DNA of 64,000 nt from sequence record MK295204, one strand, 5' to 3'. Positions 4,309-58,727 of the stretch are shown piece after piece; the first letter of the stretch is position 1, and each line of letters starts with the position of its first letter. The stretch is from Shigella phage vB_SdyM_006. Under the pieces are notes generated by a model, which saw only the letters and a list, made by a program, of their open reading frames with translations, ran no database searches and was not told the DNA's origin. The position numbers and the translations under genes were made by a program.

Positions 4309-4483
4309 AATAAATATTAAAATCCTCTATAGTATAGAAATAAGAAAACTCTCCCTGTTCAACAGAGATTGTCTCATCATATACATTAGTCGGATCAATT
4401 AAAACTGGTATATTGTACTTCTCTTTTAATAGAAGCTTAATAAGATATGGTAATGCATTTATATCGTTATATTCTTCAATCAT
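4280..4483 (-). CDS. Hypothetical protein (start trimmed to internal Met)
   Basis: ORF track gives 4280-4588, overlapping gp55 by 113 nt; internal Met gives a short overlap typical of this genome. Confidence 0.35.
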
Positions 4484-5027
4484 CGGGGTTAGATTGAGTT
4501 TCTGCTTTAAGTAATTCATAAAAATCATCCAATGTCGGTCCTGTATCATCAGCCTTTTTTGACCCGCTAGATTTAACAGAACTTTCATAAGAGTTTAATT
4601 TATCATATATGTCTTGTATAAACGTTTCGTCTGCAATTTGAGATAAATCTGTATCAAATTCATCATAAACGTTATGGACAAAGTAGCTATATTTTATTGC
4701 CATTTCTTTTCGTTCTTTTTTAATACGCTGAACAAATGCATTAAAACAAGCCTTAGTGATGTAAGCATGTGGATTATTATATTTCTTCTCATCAAAGCCA
4801 TATAAACCTTTTATAGTAGCTTCAATACCGTCCCAATACATTTCTTGTTTCCAATCAGGTGTATATCCAGAAAAGTTATAACGATAGGAAAGGCCTTCAG
4901 CTATAAGCATAATAGCGCGTCCAATAGAATCAGGGATTTTTACCTGATAACCAGCATCATAACAGTCTTGTTTCCACTTACAAATTTCTTTATATAATTC
5001 TTTATTGTTAATATAATTATTCATCAA
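4476..5027 (-). CDS. 55: Late-transcription sigma factor gp55
   Basis: 183 aa (T4 gp55 is 185 aa); sequence resembles T4 gp55; T4-like position. Confidence 0.85.
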
Positions 5028-5040
5028 GAACCTCCAAGTT

Positions 5041-5235
5041 AATTATATACAAAAATAATATTTTGCATTTGCAATCAAGGAGCTGCGCTCCTTGATATTT
5101 TTATTATTTTATTAAGTTCTTTATATATTATATATAACTATTAAGTAATAAATTAGTAACTCTAGTAAATTAATTTATTAAAAGTCTAGTATATTCTATA
5201 TAACTATTAAGTAATAAATTAATAACTCTATGTTA
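5041..5235. repeat. Intergenic repeat module copy A: GC-clamp stem-loop (GGAGC-TGC-GCTCC) plus two copies of an AT-rich promoter-like unit
   Basis: Core unit tatataactattaagtaataaatta occurs twice here and twice at 40474-40664; the stem-loop plus T-run is shared by both loci. Confidence 0.7.
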
Positions 5236-6657
5236 CTATTTTCTGGTATGTTCTATCCAGTCTTTTACTATTTTTTGATCTTCTATATTATCAGGGTCTA
5301 ATTTTCTACCTAGTTTTCTTAGAAGATACATATAACGATATTTTTCTTTAGTAGTCATTTCGTATTGTTTTTGAAATGATAATCGCTTTCTTGTTTGTTT
5401 TGCTTTAGGAACTTCTAACATGTAATCAGTACAGATAGTAGCATTTTTAAAATACTTATCTTTTATATACTTTGCTAATCTCATATCAGGAACAAATAAA
5501 TTAACTTTTTTATTGCTTTTATTGACCCGGATATTAGTTCTTGCACATAATTGAAAAGCCGGTTCAAGATATTTTGATACTATATAAGCGTTAACTAATT
5601 CATCTTCTTCTAACCCTGCTGATATAGCAAGTTCTTTTAGTATAGGAATTTGCCATGGTAATGGGTTAAAGCTAAACATGACTACAACGTTCCTATAATC
5701 CGTATAGGAGTTTAATCCATGTGGGTTATATGGAACTTCAAGTCCTTTATTAAAACGCGCCCTGTATGAATTCCTGGTGTATATAAATGGCTCATCTCCA
5801 ATTAACCCGTCAAGAATATTTTTGATTCTGGAATAATTGGTTAAACCATCAATTTCTTTATCAGCATTATGTTTAGACCAAGAATTTTCAAACATAACGT
5901 TTATTTGGATTCTTGAAGTATTAGAATATTCTTTAAATACGAGTTTATCTTCTAGAGGTGATTTAACAAAATCCCATTTGTTAAAATATTTTAGAATTTT
6001 ACCAGTAAAAGTGTCTTCTATATTTGCTGCAGAAATAGTTACTTTATCAAAAACTTCCCAATCTTTACTAGACACGTCATTAATAAAATAGCATGTTGCG
6101 CCAGATTCCGTTTTAGATATTTTTGTTGGAATACCTTGTAATAAAGCTTTGTATAAAGGGAGTAAACTCACACAGATATCATCTAATTGGTTAATACCCT
6201 GTAATGCAAGTTCTTCTATTTCTTCTTTATATTTTTCATCTAAAATAAGATCTGATAATCCATCACTTATAGGAAGACAATATTTAAGGATTTCTTCTAA
6301 ATTATGAGAAAACGTAAATTTATTAAATGACACTAATTCTGGGACTTCATCAATATATAGACTAAATCCTTTGAACTTACTAAAATCCGTAATTGATAAC
6401 AATGCAGAATGAGTTATAAACAAAACATCTGCTTGTGTTTCTTCAATAGCTTTATTAACAGACTTTGAGCCAAGTTTATTGTCAGAATCAATTAATACCC
6501 CTTGTCCGCCCAACGAGCAAAAATAATCAAAGGATTGCTTAGACAAAAGCCTCGATATCGAGGCTATAATTGATTTTTCTTTTTTATTGACAATATTTTC
6601 TACAATGGCTTTAGTCTTTCCAGCAGCTGGAATTGCTTTTAAGACTTCAATTTTCAT
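5236..6657 (-). CDS. P-loop NTPase of unknown function
   Basis: 473 aa; Walker A-like AIPAAGKTKA near N-terminus and Walker B-like LYIDEV about 90 aa later; large C-terminal region with no recognised motif. Confidence 0.6.
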   Translation of the reverse strand: MKIEVLKAIPAAGKTKAIVENIVNKKEKSIIASISRLLSKQSFDYFCSLGGQGVLIDSDNKLGSKSVNKAIEETQADVLFITHSALLSITDFSKFKGFSLYIDEVPELVSFNKFTFSHNLEEILKYCLPISDGLSDLILDEKYKEEIEELALQGINQLDDICVSLLPLYKALLQGIPTKISKTESGATCYFINDVSSKDWEVFDKVTISAANIEDTFTGKILKYFNKWDFVKSPLEDKLVFKEYSNTSRIQINVMFENSWSKHNADKEIDGLTNYSRIKNILDGLIGDEPFIYTRNSYRARFNKGLEVPYNPHGLNSYTDYRNVVVMFSFNPLPWQIPILKELAISAGLEEDELVNAYIVSKYLEPAFQLCARTNIRVNKSNKKVNLFVPDMRLAKYIKDKYFKNATICTDYMLEVPKAKQTRKRLSFQKQYEMTTKEKYRYMYLLRKLGRKLDPDNIEDQKIVKDWIEHTRK

Positions 6658-6974
6658 TATTTAAATCCATTTGCACGTAATTTTTTATATTTACGAATAC
6701 CTTTTGTAGTAATTTCTGTAGGACCTTGGATATTAGGCTCGACACCAAATGCCTGAATACCAAAGTTATTTAGAATAGACTCTACCATAATTTCTCTAAT
6801 ACCTGTTTTAGAAATTTGGTGATGGTCTTTGTTAAGAGAGGAATGAAGCTTTTGTTCATGTATATCTAAAAATCTTGGAGTTACAATTTTATCTTCACTT
6901 AATAATTCTTCAGCGATAGGAAAAATATAATTTTTAATTTCATTGCGAAGTAACTTACTCATAATCATCTCCAA
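6657..6974 (-). CDS. Hypothetical protein
   Basis: 105-aa ORF translationally coupled to neighbours. Confidence 0.45.
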   Translation of the reverse strand: MEMIMSKLLRNEIKNYIFPIAEELLSEDKIVTPRFLDIHEQKLHSSLNKDHHQISKTGIREIMVESILNNFGIQAFGVEPNIQGPTEITTKGIRKYKKLRANGFK

Positions 6975-7233
6975 TATATTTTTTTAATCCAGATAAACCA
7001 CCAACTGATTTATCATTAATGAATATTTGTGGGTATATAATACTAAGGTTTTGTTTATTAAGCATTTTTGCTAGAGAAATAATTGTTTCTCTGTGATAAT
7101 CAAATCCTTCTGGTGTATTATATAGAACCGGGATAAAAGTGTACTCTAATTTATGTTCTTCACATAATCTAACAGCTTCTTTACATGAATAACAACGACC
7201 AACTTCTTCAGGAATGCCATAAATTATTATCAT
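6955..7233 (-). CDS. nrdH: Glutaredoxin-like protein (NrdH-type)
   Basis: 92 aa with CYSC active-site motif near N-terminus and glutaredoxin-fold pattern; adjacent to nrdG/nrdD. Confidence 0.75.
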   Translation of the reverse strand: MIIIYGIPEEVGRCYSCKEAVRLCEEHKLEYTFIPVLYNTPEGFDYHRETIISLAKMLNKQNLSIIYPQIFINDKSVGGLSGLKKYIGDDYE

Positions 7234-7718: not shown

Positions 7719-8195
7719 CTAGTTATAGTTAACCCATTTATTATTAATTTTTCTATACATTTTTTGATTATCTGAACCACGATAAGGCTTATCAGTTGGT
7801 TTAGTATAGTCATACTTTCCATCTATAATAACATCAACATACTCTAAAAGCTCTAAGGCTTCTTCTGGGATATCATTAAATTCATATCCGGTCCAAAGCC
7901 ATACATCTTTCCCTGTTTGTTCTTTAACTTTTTTACAGATATCAATAACGGATTTAATGTTAGAACGATACAAAGGGTCGCCGCCTGTGATTGTTAAACC
8001 TTTAATATATGATTTATTAACCATAGAGATTAAATCGTCTAGAGTTGATTCTGTGAACTCCTGTCCATTACGCTGGTTCCAAGTAGACTTGTTATAGCAT
8101 TGTTCACATTTATGAGAACATCCAGTAACAAAAAGGACCGTTCTAAATCCTTCGCCGTTTAAAGAATCACATGGGACAAGTGATGCATAATTCAT
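7719..8195 (-). CDS. nrdG: Anaerobic ribonucleotide reductase activating protein NrdG (radical SAM)
   Basis: GCSHKCEQCYNKSTW cluster typical of NrdG; start trimmed to MNYASLVPCDS so the 8216-8230 hairpin lies upstream. Confidence 0.85.
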   Translation of the reverse strand: MNYASLVPCDSLNGEGFRTVLFVTGCSHKCEQCYNKSTWNQRNGQEFTESTLDDLISMVNKSYIKGLTITGGDPLYRSNIKSVIDICKKVKEQTGKDVWLWTGYEFNDIPEEALELLEYVDVIIDGKYDYTKPTDKPYRGSDNQKMYRKINNKWVNYN

Positions 8196-8210
8196 TTTAT
8201 TCTCCATACC

Positions 8211-8232
8211 AAAAAGGACCCGAAGGTCCTTA
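8211..8232 (-). terminator. GC-clamp tetraloop hairpin (GGACC-CGAA-GGTCC) followed by U-run on minus strand
   Basis: Read directly; sits between the 8234-8566 ORF and nrdG. Confidence 0.45.
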
Positions 8233-8233
8233 A

Positions 8234-8566
8234 TTAACAATAAGCGTAGCATTCATTAGATTTTTTCTTATATACAGAATCACTATTTGTCCAGTCAACA
8301 TCTTCGGGGTCAAAATAACATTCTGCATCTTCATATGAACTTTCTAATCTAAGAGCTTTATGGGCAATTAGACGTTTGTCAGAACGAGATATTTTAGCTT
8401 GAACATTTTTAACTTCGGAAGAGATTCCTTTCCAACGTTTAGGTTTATCAGAGTGAAAAATATTATTTGATACTTCTGTTTGACAGATATTACCACGTGG
8501 TTTTCTTGAAGTAACATCATAATAACCATTATTTTTAACAGTTTTTCTTCTAATAGTTTTACCCAT
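8234..8566 (-). CDS. Hypothetical basic protein
   Basis: 110 aa, lysine/arginine-rich N-terminus; inserted between nrdD and nrdG. Confidence 0.45.
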   Translation of the reverse strand: MGKTIRRKTVKNNGYYDVTSRKPRGNICQTEVSNNIFHSDKPKRWKGISSEVKNVQAKISRSDKRLIAHKALRLESSYEDAECYFDPEDVDWTNSDSVYKKKSNECYAYC

Positions 8567-18570: not shown

Positions 18571-18803
18571 AAATCACCGTTTAAAGTTTTTAGAATGATA
18601 AGATTTATCTTGAGCAACTGGTAAGTCAAGAACGTCAGAAATACCAATTTTAGCTGGGCGAGCTGTCAGCCTATCTTGGACATCAACTTTCTTTTCAAAC
18701 TGACCAGCTAACAGGTAATATAAACGATCATTAGACATAATTCTCTCCATTTGTTTTAATGAGGCTATACTATTACAAAATATAGCCTTTGTACACTTAT
18801 TTT

Positions 18804-19226
18804 TTAGATTTTTTCAAAACCTGATTCGTCGCAATCATTTTCATCATAAAACACGGTGTACCCAAGTTTTATCATAGCTTGTAGAGTAGCATTCATGATA
18901 TCAATATTTTCTTCAGAATGGTTCATATTTAAATAAACATAAGCAGAATCACCTGTATGCTCTTTATACTCGTCTTCATTAATTGTCACAACAAAAATAG
19001 ATTTTGGTGATTTGTTTCGTGTAAAATACAGTCGAAAGCACTCTAAATTGTAAGCAATAAGTTCACAAATGGAATTAGTTTTATTTCTCACATTTAAAGA
19101 TTCAAATGAATCTTTAAAAATAGATGAATTTAATTCTTTAGATTCTAAATTGATGCAATCAATAATATCGTTTACTGCTTTGATTTTATCATCACAAAGA
19201 ATCAAAGCTCTAGAACACATTCCCAT
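18804..19226 (-). CDS. Hypothetical protein
   Basis: 140-aa ORF. Confidence 0.5.
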   Translation of the reverse strand: MGMCSRALILCDDKIKAVNDIIDCINLESKELNSSIFKDSFESLNVRNKTNSICELIAYNLECFRLYFTRNKSPKSIFVVTINEDEYKEHTGDSAYVYLNMNHSEENIDIMNATLQAMIKLGYTVFYDENDCDESGFEKI

Positions 19227-29774: not shown

Positions 29775-30025
29775 TTTATTTCCTTACATGTATTAGTTTC
29801 AAAATCAACAATAATATTTTTACGTTCAATGCCAAGATTAATTAATTTAGAAATACATTGACCTTGGATTTTTTGGTCTTCTAAACCTTTAGAAACACTT
29901 TTAGATAATGCACTCCATGAAAAACAAATAACTATTAAAATAACACATCCAATTAAATATTTCATGATATACTCCATTTGTTTTGATGTGTCTATAGTAT
30001 TATAGATTTTTTGTGTTGTAAACAT
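29771..30025 (-). CDS. Small secreted protein
   Basis: 84 aa; internal Met followed by signal-peptide-like MKYLIGCVILIVICFSWSALS. Confidence 0.4.
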   Translation of the reverse strand: MFTTQKIYNTIDTSKQMEYIMKYLIGCVILIVICFSWSALSKSVSKGLEDQKIQGQCISKLINLGIERKNIIVDFETNTCKEIK

Positions 30026-30031
30026 TTATTT

Positions 30032-30487
30032 TTAATTTTTTGAAATTAATTTTCGACATTGGTTTATGTATGCTTTGCGCTGGTTGTCCTCTAATTTTTC
30101 TAGATACGCAGCTTTTTGATCTTTAAAATTAACTAATCTTTCACTTATCTTATTAAATGTATCAGATTTAAGATAAAATACAGATCTTTTAGATTTAAAT
30201 TCAAAATAAGCTATAACAGTTCTTGACACATTTTCTCCTGGCTTCACTTGTGTCCTAGTACTTAATGGAAAATTCAAGTACATTGCAGCTGTGTATTCAG
30301 CCAAGAAGAAAGTCACTTTATCGACGTTATATAAGAGCCAGGACAATATATCATCTTCATTGATATATCTAAATTCAGATTCAATTAAAAGCCTATACCG
30401 AAGATCTGAGACTTGACATTTGCCAGCTTCATAAGAAGGCTCAAAACTTTCTGTGATGACAGAAAGTTCATCTAAATTATAATTCAT
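30032..30487 (-). CDS. Paralog family member 3 of 3
   Basis: 151 aa; shares the Y-x-A-x-Y-L-NFPL core, F-Y-L-x-x-D and a C-terminal Y-I-x-x-C-R-K/N-x-I motif with the two upstream ORFs. Confidence 0.5.
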   Translation of the reverse strand: MNYNLDELSVITESFEPSYEAGKCQVSDLRYRLLIESEFRYINEDDILSWLLYNVDKVTFFLAEYTAAMYLNFPLSTRTQVKPGENVSRTVIAYFEFKSKRSVFYLKSDTFNKISERLVNFKDQKAAYLEKLEDNQRKAYINQCRKLISKN

Positions 30488-38495: not shown

Positions 38496-38555
38496 TTTTC
38501 AATTATTCCTCTTTAGTGGTTTAAACATACTATCGTCTTAAATTACGTATGTAAA

Positions 38556-39232
<677 letters not shown>

Positions 39233-39252
<20 letters not shown>

Positions 39253-39892
39253 GTTTTACCTTTTTTTGAAAAATTTCTAAAGAATCATTATTTTCAATAA
39301 CAATATCACCTTCTAAAATAGGGAGGTCTTGTTCAGTGATATGGTCATCATTTGTAATTGTATTTTTTTTAATATGGATAATTTTACCTTTATTGTTTCG
39401 AACAGTATCAATTTCATGTACTTGTCGACAATCAGTAATAATAACAACATGACTTCTAGGGATTAATTTATCAATGTAATTGAAAACCATATCTACCCAG
39501 TACATTTTATCCATGCTTACAACAATATCAGTTCCAAGGGTCTGTAGGAACTTTCGAATTGTAAATTCATTATTATTTATAATAGGGATTTCTGGTATAT
39601 CACCTTTAAGACCATGACTTTTTAAATATCGAATACAGCGAATCATATAATCTTCGAATTGTTCTTGTGTCATATTTAATTTATATTCGCGATCAATGCC
39701 ATGTCCGTCAAAGTCATCATAGGTCAATTCAAACCCATTATAGTTTTGCCAATTTATAGACAAAGTGAATTTTAGATAATCGGCAAAAGCCATAGTGTGT
39801 GAAGTAATATTATTTTCTTCACAAATATCTTCAATAAATTTAGCACATGTATCTTTTCCGGAACGTTTTTTACCGGTCAAACCAATAATCAT
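39233..39892 (-). CDS. 1: Deoxynucleoside monophosphate kinase gp1
   Basis: 219 aa; P-loop GLTGKKRSGKDT and overall resemblance to T4 gp1. Confidence 0.85.
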
Positions 39893-39894
39893 AA

Positions 39895-40473
39895 TTACCT
39901 CATAGAAGGATGTAAGTTTCTACCTATTGAAATAGCGGAGTCTTGAATAGACGGACGAGATACTATAATTTTATTATTTTTCTCTATTTCGAAATATTTA
40001 AAGTTAAATACAACAGTCATATAAACCGCTGGGTCACCTTCGTTATCATAACCATATTCTATATCAGATATAGAAGAAGGCCAAGCGCCATAATAGTTAA
40101 ATGATATTAAGGATTCTTTTTTATCATTATCTAATATATGTAATATCAGTCCTTCAGGTTGTCCAGATGGGTCCCAGGCGGTATTATTATGGGTGATATA
40201 GTTATTAATTGATAACATCCATTTGTATATCTCTACGTAAGAGAGGAGTTCCTCGTCTAATAAAACTTTAGCTACTAATTCTCCATGTTCAAGTGTAGAA
40301 CCTGGTAAATTAGATCTACCAAGTCCTTTTGTTCCTAAAGGAACTTCAGTAATAGGTATTCTAACATCAGGAAGTGTAAAGCTTTGGACATTTAATGTAA
40401 ACGCTTCAGTTAATTTACTATCTGGTATATCAATTCTAAAATTTGTAGAATTTGTTTGATTAAAAAAACTCAT
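39895..40473 (-). CDS. 3: Tail completion / tube terminator protein gp3
   Basis: 192 aa; assigned by synteny (1-3-2-4). Confidence 0.65.
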   Translation of the reverse strand: MSFFNQTNSTNFRIDIPDSKLTEAFTLNVQSFTLPDVRIPITEVPLGTKGLGRSNLPGSTLEHGELVAKVLLDEELLSYVEIYKWMLSINNYITHNNTAWDPSGQPEGLILHILDNDKKESLISFNYYGAWPSSISDIEYGYDNEGDPAVYMTVVFNFKYFEIEKNNKIIVSRPSIQDSAISIGRNLHPSMR

Positions 40474-40664
40474 ATTAGTTTCCTTGTTTTATTAATTTAT
40501 TAAAAGTATAGTATATTCTATATAACTATTAAGTAATAAATTAATAACTATATGTTACTATTTCTAAAGAAATCTGGAGCTGCGCTCCAGAATTTTTATT
40601 ATTTTATTAAGTTCTTTATATATTATATATAACTATTAAGTAATAAATTAATAACTGTACGTTA
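40474..40664. repeat. Intergenic repeat module copy B: promoter-like unit, stem-loop (GGAGC-TGC-GCTCC) plus T-run, second promoter-like unit
   Basis: Same building blocks as 5041-5235 but in a different order. Confidence 0.7.
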
Positions 40665-41483
40665 TTATCTTTTCCAAACTTTAGAAGCTGCAAATCTTGA
40701 ACCTTGAGACATAAATTGCTGAGTAGGCATAAAAATAATATTAGACCAATCTTGTGGTTTAACTTCTATTATAGGGCCTTTAATATGTCCAGGTAAATAA
40801 GCTTTTATCATCTGATCAGAACCATGCATTCCTCTAACACTACTCCAATTAATTTTTAATTTAGTTTTAGAAGAAATGTTACTTGTAGAAGAAAATCTTT
40901 TTAATAGTTCTTCTAAAAATGCTTGTCTGGCTTTAGGTGGTATATAATGAAGATTTAATCCATATAATAATTGATTTCCGTTTCCAGCAGTTTTAGCACC
41001 TAAGAAAATGATCAATGGAAACTTATCCCAATACGGGAGAGTATCTTTATTTTTGGCATCATAAACATAAGTATAAATTTTACCGATTTCTGGTACTTTA
41101 GTTGTTTTTGTTCTTACACCAGTTTTTATAGTTTCTTTAAACCATTTTATAGATTTATTATTAACAGCTGCGCCTTCATTTCTTATTTTTTTCTTTAAAG
41201 TACTTCTAAAGTCATTTACAATTGCAAGTTCACGTTCTCTACGTGATAATTTATGTTTAGATTTACCTTTAATAGCTTCGACTTCTAATGCTTCTTTTAT
41301 TTTATCAGAATACCGACTCATTGCTGATGTGAATGTGCTATATTTTATTCCTTTATATTCAGCAAACTTTTTAGAAGACACAGTTCTTCTAACTTTAGCA
41401 AATTCAACACCTAATTTAATCCAATCTTGTGCTGTTTTAGGTAAAGACATTTCTTCTTCAATTTCAAATATCATCCTTTCCAC
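40665..41483 (-). CDS. 2: DNA end-protector protein gp2
   Basis: 272 aa (T4 gp2 is 274 aa); synteny. Confidence 0.7.
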   Translation of the reverse strand: MERMIFEIEEEMSLPKTAQDWIKLGVEFAKVRRTVSSKKFAEYKGIKYSTFTSAMSRYSDKIKEALEVEAIKGKSKHKLSRRERELAIVNDFRSTLKKKIRNEGAAVNNKSIKWFKETIKTGVRTKTTKVPEIGKIYTYVYDAKNKDTLPYWDKFPLIIFLGAKTAGNGNQLLYGLNLHYIPPKARQAFLEELLKRFSSTSNISSKTKLKINWSSVRGMHGSDQMIKAYLPGHIKGPIIEVKPQDWSNIIFMPTQQFMSQGSRFAASKVWKR

Positions 41484-58700: not shown

Positions 58701-58705
58701 TTTAA

Positions 58706-58727
58706 GGACCTTCGGGTCCTTTTTTTG
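58706..58727 (+). terminator. Rho-independent terminator: GGACC-UUCG-GGUCC plus U7
   Basis: Read directly, immediately after the wac stop. Confidence 0.6.

Follow-up and report, generated by a model that had tools for sequence, protein, structure and literature searches.

Repeated regulatory DNA of several kinds has been described in T4-like phages. Promoter-early stem-loop elements (PeSLs) were reported in RB49 and phi1, in T4 and PST, and in KVP40 and nt-1 (Arbiol 2010, PMC2839356; Comeau 2014, PMC4122927); their promoters are near-consensus sigma-70 sites (TTGACA/TTTACW-N17-TATAAT/TAYWAT), and the elements are numerous, crowd hyperplastic regions and adjoin indels (PMC2839356; PMC4122927). 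In MotA-type middle promoters, the MotA box has the consensus (a/t)(a/t)TGCTT(t/c)a centred near -30, with an excellent -10, TAnnnT, located 12 ± 1 bp further on; at P46 of T4 the box has an ACTT centre and is poorly bound. The T4 replication origins oriF (at uvsY) and oriG (at gene 34) each combine a promoter with an easily unwound AT-rich segment, and share no motif (Kreuzer & Brister 2010, PMC3016281); no sequence-defined origin family is known in T4.

The elements analysed here lie in a stretch of 64,000 nucleotides of the Shigella phage vB_SdyM_006 (sequence record MK295204), hereafter called the window. Sequence comparison places this phage among the T4-like phages, in the genus Bragavirus, with Proteus phages as its relatives; positions 4400-7000 are 96.8% identical to phage phiP4-3. 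Two intergenic modules, A and B, and the genes around them, all on the minus strand and named after the annotation of relatives, are listed below.

4476-5027, minus strand: gene 55 (late sigma factor), downstream of module A
5028-5235, minus strand: module A, the entire intergenic gap from the orf473 stop to the gene 55 start
5074-5096, no strand assigned: hairpin A, ATCAAGGAGC-TGC-GCTCCTTGAT, 10-bp stem, then ATTTTTATT
5097-5164, minus strand: X unit of module A, 25-mer core at 5131-5155
5169-5241, minus strand: Y unit of module A, core at 5197-5221, carrying ATTACTTAA-13 nt-TATACT
5236-6657, minus strand: orf473, upstream of module A, conserved, phrog_2467 (function unassigned)
39233-39892, minus strand: gene 1 (dNMP kinase), 2 nt after gene 3
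39895-40473, minus strand: gene 3 (tail completion/sheath stabiliser), downstream of module B
40474-40664, minus strand: module B, the entire gap from the gene 2 stop to the gene 3 ATG
40491-40563, minus strand: Y unit of module B, core at 40519-40543
40573-40591, no strand assigned: hairpin B, TCTGGAGC-TGC-GCTCCAGA, 8-bp stem
40592-40659, minus strand: X unit of module B, core at 40626-40650
40665-41483, minus strand: gene 2 (DNA end protector), upstream of module B, annotated as 810 nt in relatives

Gene 55 is 549 nt long in relatives, which would place its start at 5024. The neighbouring orf473 encodes a Walker-A-like AAGKTKA near the N-terminus and gives a sub-threshold match to DEAD helicases (E = 5e-4); it stands next to gene 55 throughout the clade and is conserved in Aeromonas phages too.

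An earlier sequence-only reading had described a GC hairpin, a T-run and two AT-rich units upstream of gene 55, together with a rearranged second copy at 40474-40664, and every one of these elements was found where it had been placed. The 25-mer TATATAACTATTAAGTAATAAATTA has exactly four perfect matches in the 64-kb window, all on the plus strand (5131, 5197, 40519 and 40626), and no further window site was detected at up to three mismatches. Its expected number by chance was zero in 100 shuffles. Given this expectation, the perfection of the copies and the retention of the core across genera (see below), an origin by chance or low complexity was rejected, and the cassette repeat is confirmed as real and highly non-random. 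Alignment divides the modules into two blocks. The X-block, consisting of hairpin, T-run and unit, is identical at 85 of 92 positions between 5073-5164 and 40571-40659, while the Y-block (5169-5241 and 40491-40563) is identical at 71 of 73, its homology extending 6 nt into the end of orf473. On the plus strand the order is hairpin-X-Y in module A (5073-5241) and Y-hairpin-X in module B (40491-40659), a circular permutation. Read in the direction of the genes, module A thus consists of the Y unit, the X unit (AGTTACTAATTTATTACTTAATAGTTATATATAATATATAAAG followed by an A-rich part leading into hairpin A), the hairpin, and about 50 nt containing TTTGTATATAAT and the SD sequence GGAGG before the ATG. 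In module B the X unit and the hairpin come first, and the Y unit is the sole element between hairpin B and the SD (AAGGAAA) and ATG of gene 3.

Both hairpins are stable as RNA on either strand (-12.7 to -14.9 kcal/mol, z -4.1 to -5.3, by folding); hairpin A alone gives -14.4/-14.9 kcal/mol with z of about -4.1. Hairpin B is flanked by T-rich tails on both strands and is terminator-like in both directions. The T-run of hairpin A lies on the plus strand only. As the minus strand carries the genes, the antisense strand alone has the T-run after the hairpin, the tail on the gene strand being TTGCAAATG. Consequently, the GC stem-loop plus T-run of an intrinsic terminator is present on both strands in copy B and on the plus strand only in copy A. 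Like the intercistronic intrinsic terminators of T4, which have very stable loops, the module hairpins combine a 3-nt loop on a GC stem of 7-10 bp with a T-rich tail. Unlike in T4, the stem is a perfect palindrome that could serve either strand, most hairpins keep the outer stem TCTG...CAGA, and the loops, in the window and in relatives, mostly read GNA on one strand and TNC on its complement, with a closing C-G pair (AGC-GCA/GAA/GTA-GCT); the GNA-bearing strand differs between junctions. Such loops are of the unusually stable GCGNAGC mini-hairpin type. A different type of hairpin occurs elsewhere in the window: perfect 23-nt inverted copies at 8211-8233 and 58702-58724 (GGACC-TTCG-GGTCC plus T-run) have the form of C(UUCG)G-type intrinsic terminators, one for each direction of transcription.

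Whole-genome scans of relatives extended the family. Pm5461 contains eight perfect 25-mers arranged as four pairs, at 38.5, 70.1, 114.3 and 150.3 kb, and phiP4-3 contains eight units plus one decayed copy, so that a search for the 25-nt core yields four copies in the window and eight per complete relative. In both genomes the units and the four hairpins are confined to the junctions orf473/55, 2/3, 25/uvsY and 35/36, the sequence GGAGC-N3-GCTCC occurs exactly four times and only within the modules, and at every junction the unit points in the same direction as the genes, which lie on the plus strand in two cases and on the minus strand in the other two. When scored with a weight matrix of the unit, the eight copies reach 31-38 bits and everything else remains at or below 14 bits; since no other site exceeds 14 bits, the family is discrete rather than the top end of a graded promoter class.

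The search was carried across genera by an exact-pattern scan of IMG/VR, by BLAST, and by tblastn with the flanking proteins; a related-locus search with gp3 returned close relatives only. Morganella phage MP1 and Serratia phage Muldoon carry the unit core TTATTACTTAA-N3-TTATATAKAA at each of the four junctions, and PS2 carries it at no fewer than three (55, 2/3 and uvsY), the counts for these three phages resting on all unit-pattern matches found in IMG/VR. At the junctions returned by BLAST, to which sampling of the following phages was confined, Providencia phage PSTCR6 has three units at uvsY, Morganella phage Rgz1 two at 2/3, and Serratia phage WSPA has the unit at the uvsY and 55 junctions. 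Three metagenome contigs contain it as well. The conserved part, of about 21 nt, reads TTATTACTTA(A/G)-N3-TTATATA(G/T)A(A/G) and is invariant except in one diverged PSTCR6 unit; (G/T)TAATAAA follows downstream at variable spacing. The flanking proteins are 40-77% identical to their Pm5461 counterparts (gp3 49-57%, gp36 40-49%), and by this comparison the unit core is more conserved than its protein neighbours. Among 185,579 bacterial and archaeal genomes (596 Gb), the core had five chance matches, none of them in host genera, and a host-derived motif or a site for a host regulator was rejected on this ground. The hairpin stems covary between junctions and lineages with pairing kept (GGAGC/GCTCC, GGCC/GGCC, GGGAG/CTCCC).

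At almost every junction and in almost every lineage, a GC hairpin lies 42-64 nt past a unit. At the 2/3 junction of Muldoon and PS2, as in Bragavirus and Rgz1, the unit stands alone between the hairpin and the SD and ATG of gene 3, and in Muldoon its GGAGTGTAATAAATG doubles as SD and start codon; in MP1 a unit immediately precedes gene 36. At the uvsY junction of WSPA the entire unit-hairpin cassette is inverted, and in one metagenome contig (L133) the unit is inverted. Past the hairpin, genes 55 and uvsY have promoters of their own, TTGACT-17-TATAAT in Muldoon and AGCTTTA-12-TATAAT in PSTCR6, which leaves many units with nothing to express and a hairpin ahead of them at 42-64 nt. Such features, the inversions and the separate promoters among them, indicate that the unit-hairpin pair acts as an autonomous cassette. 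We found no description of the repeats in the searchable literature on the motif and on these phage genera. The Mecenats66 packaging-site paper appears to deal with that site in another Morganella phage, and no relevance to the modules is evident.

The units were compared with the three canonical promoter classes. The early promoters of this phage are of T4 type, GTTTACA-N18-TAtwAT, and its late promoters are the canonical TATAAATA. A generic sigma-70 scan found no site in the units of module A and one 9/12 site in module B, no more than in shuffles, and with a matrix built from the phage's own early promoters the modules score -3 bits or less on either strand, the training sites scoring 13-36 bits; an ordinary early promoter was rejected by both. 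The hexamers that had suggested a T4 early promoter, GTTATT-17-TTATAT, are indeed present, but GTTATT falls outside the cross-genus core, is not conserved in Muldoon and PS2, and belongs to units that early-promoter models reject. Canonical late promoters were rejected likewise: the units lack TATAAATA, and before gene 36 a separate canonical TATAAATA comes after the hairpin. Genuine early-promoter sequences were found at other positions. Two 83-nt repeats in the window (18736-18818 and 29963-30045, 71% identical, with genes on the minus strand) each carry on that strand a typical T4-type early promoter, GT(T/G)TAC-18 nt-TA(C/G)TAT, with A-rich DNA upstream of it and with a leader, SD and ATG; these are the genuine early-promoter cassettes of the phage. 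At about 8190-8270 of Pm5461 (L002), the -35 GTTTACA of an annotated early promoter lies inside a hairpin loop with a T-run after it (GAGGT-TTACAAG-ACCTC-TTTTATTTTG-TATTATA), which makes it a real PeSL-like composite of terminator and early promoter elsewhere in the genome.

Of the promoter classes, the MotA type appears to fit the Y units best. A MotA-box-like ATTACTTAA (or a variant ending in TTAG) is present in all lineages, matching the consensus at seven of nine positions, with an ACTT centre, and in Y units it is followed after 13 bp by TATACT, in agreement with the spacing rule of 12 ± 1 bp. The geometry equals that of T4 PuvsY, ATGCTTCA-13-TATAAT; P55, P1 and PuvsY, middle promoters of T4, occupy positions equivalent to cassette junctions, and MotA and AsiA are annotated in Pm5461 and phiP4-3. 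Box and -10 of the Y units likewise resemble the PmSLs of Vibrio phage nt-1 and the T4 middle promoters (Comeau 2014, PMC4122927; Hinton 2010, PMC2988021). The units differ from MotA promoters in several respects, however. They miss the G of the GCTT centre, and the -10 at MotA distance is conserved neither across lineages nor in X units: the hexamer there is TATATA in X units and TATACC, TATCTA or TATACA in Muldoon and PS2, and about half of the MP1 units obey the -10 spacing rule. The most conserved block, TTATATAKAA, would occupy the spacer, and a discrete family of eight copies contrasts with the roughly 60 graded middle promoters of T4. A -10-like TA(G/T)AAT is kept in most units, and the Y unit also has an overlapping TAGAAT; about one third of the units across lineages have TATAAA or TAGAAA, without the T at -7. 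In the 5' part of gene 3 itself (40358-40402, minus strand) lie an early-like GTTTACA-N17/18-TACACT and a canonical MotA-type AAAGCTTTA-13-TAGAAT. These sites may be prereplicative promoters serving gene 1 (dNMP kinase).

The copies bear indirect signs of recombination, namely the permuted block order, variants shared within a genome, a copied leader and a mosaic patch at module A. Lineage-specific variants are common to the copies of one genome, as is AATCTATTACTTAATCC to all those of MP1, and the uvsY module of Pm5461 has received a copy of the gene 3 leader and SD; together these two observations indicate gene conversion between junctions. Within the window, a patch at 5051-5494, which covers module A together with the 3' end of orf473, matches SJ_PmiM at 100% identity and phiP4-3 at only 91-92%, and its flanks are about 100% identical to phiP4-3. 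A second mosaic patch, located away from the modules at 38500-38900, is 92-94% identical to Pm5461 and 68-71% to phiP4-3.

These properties permit a direct comparison with PeSLs, to which the modules had been likened as portable cassettes flanking plastic regions. The likeness holds in part. An intergenic composite is repeated within the genome (two hairpins and four units in the window, four and eight per complete relative); it joins a stem-loop terminator to an AT-rich motif of promoter type and in some cases runs into the SD and ATG of the gene that follows. The copies may act as substrates for homologous recombination. The PeSL order of hairpin, unit, SD and ATG is that of the Y unit in copy B; the hairpin of copy A comes after both units, and this unlike arrangement is frequent in the family. 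The units are unlike PeSLs also in not being near-consensus sigma-70 sites, the generic scan and the phage matrix revealing no strong early promoter. As for their siting, the modules occupy the same four core-genome junctions in Bragavirus, MP1 and Muldoon and at least three of them in PS2, outside hyperplastic regions; no indels bounded by modules were seen in alignments to phiP4-3, SJ_PmiM and Pm5461. Portability next to plastic regions is thus not supported, nor is the expectation that comparison with relatives would reveal insertions bounded by these modules. With both promoter type and siting against it, the PeSL reading is only partly supported. A recently mobile, MITE-like element was also rejected, since all lineages have the modules at orthologous positions and target-site duplications were not observed.

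From these results, a hypothesis regarding the function of the cassettes may be proposed, which we favour tentatively: each would be a transcription punctuation cassette, a dedicated promoter-like unit joined to an intrinsic terminator, and recombination would homogenise the copies. The GC stem-loop would terminate transcription, in both directions in copy B and, as its T-run lies on the antisense strand only, in one direction in copy A. The polar unit of about 65 nt, present twice per module and having the core TTATTACTTAA-N3-TTATATA(G/T)AA in the gene direction, may be a dedicated recognition sequence read by host RNA polymerase together with a phage factor, and not an ordinary early promoter. 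The Y-type unit, with its MotA-box-like ATTACTTAA 13 bp ahead of TATACT, would in copy B initiate directly before the ribosome site of gene 3, and the X-type unit, if active at all, would fire into the hairpin. Gene conversion or homologous recombination would keep the copies at the four junctions near-identical, and the same process could have permuted the block order. Initiation at the units, the nature of the reading factor and termination at the hairpins are what we infer from these features.

Several observations are consistent with such punctuation: the units are oriented with the genes and confined to four junctions, their core is conserved despite diverged proteins, a unit stands alone ahead of gene 3 in Bragavirus, Rgz1, Muldoon and PS2, and the hairpins are stable and covary. 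Others speak against it. There is no -35 at sigma-70 spacing, and promoter models, both generic and phage-specific, reject the units; about a third of them have no T at -7, the hexamer at MotA distance is variable, and TTATATAKAA falls in the spacer. Further counterarguments are the promoters that genes 55 and uvsY have of their own, the inversions in WSPA and L133, the discreteness of the family, and the possible use by gene 1 of the promoter-like sites within gene 3.

A role as origin-like elements, by analogy with T4 oriF and oriG, is possible but less probable. A short transcript of the unit would form an R-loop in the extremely AT-rich and easily unwound module and either prime leading-strand synthesis or offer a loading site for clamp and helicase, and the hairpin would limit the transcript. 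Four dispersed loci (38, 70, 114 and 150 kb in Pm5461) are comparable to the four or five origins of T4, and a promoter-like unit in an AT-rich, easily unwound segment, in few copies per genome, would resemble their make-up; the 25/uvsY junction is the oriF position. The modules rank 1-5 among the least stable 150-bp duplexes in Pm5461 and phiP4-3, and 1-2 in the window (-141 to -151, against a genome mean of -180 with a standard deviation of 7.5, i.e. some 4-5 standard deviations off), but low duplex stability is expected of any long AT-rich intergenic gap, and in Muldoon and PS2 the element amounts to one 45-bp unit whose surroundings contain little AT-rich DNA. A discrete family, more conserved than the neighbouring proteins and tolerant of inversion, would also suit an origin. 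Yet just one of the four junctions matches a mapped T4 origin: 2/3 and 35/36 lie several kilobases away from oriE and oriG, and no such origin lies close to gene 55. Moreover, T4 origins use canonical MotA promoters and have no sequence in common. It is doubtful that the four cassettes form a set of shared, sequence-defined sites of replication initiation or clamp loading, each with promoter, unwinding region and GCGNAGC-type hairpin. As to a protein acting at such sites, orf473 was considered as an initiator and rejected, given that its match to DEAD helicases is sub-threshold and its Aeromonas phage homologues showed no unit by BLAST.

Two further readings are weaker alternatives than the origin-like one. 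The unit might be a DNA site bound by some protein specific to the clade (an insulator, nucleoid-type or recombination protein, for example), with the hairpins keeping transcription off it; we consider this clearly unlikely. The exact conservation of the core of about 21 nt, the discreteness of the family and the near absence of the core from bacterial genomes (five chance matches) would all be expected of such a site. Moreover, the unit is bounded by inverted arms, TTTATTAC...GTAATAAA, at which copy-to-copy homology stops in Muldoon, and at the 55 junction of that phage it lies between two hairpins whose T-rich tails constitute the arms; the maintenance of TCTG...CAGA in most hairpins may be counted here as well. 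However, the arms show no covariation, and MP1 does not conserve them as a pair; with very few exceptions the unit keeps one orientation to the genes, its inner sequence has polarity, and no candidate protein was found.

Very unlikely, in turn, is that each unit-then-hairpin pair constitutes a tiny small-RNA gene of about 40-65 nt. The regular hairpin at 42-64 nt after the unit, found at nearly all junctions and in nearly all lineages, and the autonomy of a cassette that is inverted in WSPA would accord with it, but the stretch between is conserved only as UAAUAAA (A-rich in Bragavirus, CCUGGAGUGUAAUAAA in Muldoon), the hairpin sequence varies by junction, several hairpins have no U-tail on that strand, and the units themselves fold weakly (z -0.3 to -3.1). 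No Rfam match was obtained, by which a known RNA family was also rejected. Similarly, a structured RNA was dismissed: the Y unit (z -3.1) has a long A-U stem that is missing from X units (z -1.3) and from Muldoon (z -0.3), and covariation of the arms was not seen. A small ORF across the unit was discarded too, as one frame is open and has no start codon.

Least likely of all is that the modules are classical PeSLs, portable combinations of strong sigma-70 early promoters and terminators flanking plastic regions, for the composite repeats, the order in copy B and the recombination signatures are outweighed by early-promoter models that reject the units, by true early promoters (GTTTACA-N18-TAtwAT, some with stem-loops of their own) elsewhere in the genome, and by core-genome positions that are fixed across genera with no bounded indels.

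Taken as punctuation cassettes, the elements would best be filed under the T4-like theme of promoter plus terminator, as a clade-wide, recombination-homogenised pairing of unit and hairpin at four junctions. T4-like phages are the reference for phage transcription and replication, and their regulatory DNA outside T4 is barely mapped. Here, a short non-coding element that is more conserved than the surrounding proteins marks four core junctions in phages infecting Proteus, Morganella, Providencia, Serratia and Cronobacter, without a clean fit to any of the three canonical T4 promoter classes. Signs of PeSL-style recombination among repeated regulatory cassettes coexist here with strict positional conservation. 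Several such phages are candidates for phage therapy, so knowledge of fixed regulatory junctions aids their engineering. If the unit is a special promoter, transcription control would have a layer that has gone unrecognised; an origin-like role would make the units the first sequence-defined origin family in T4-type phages, and origin choice would become directly testable.
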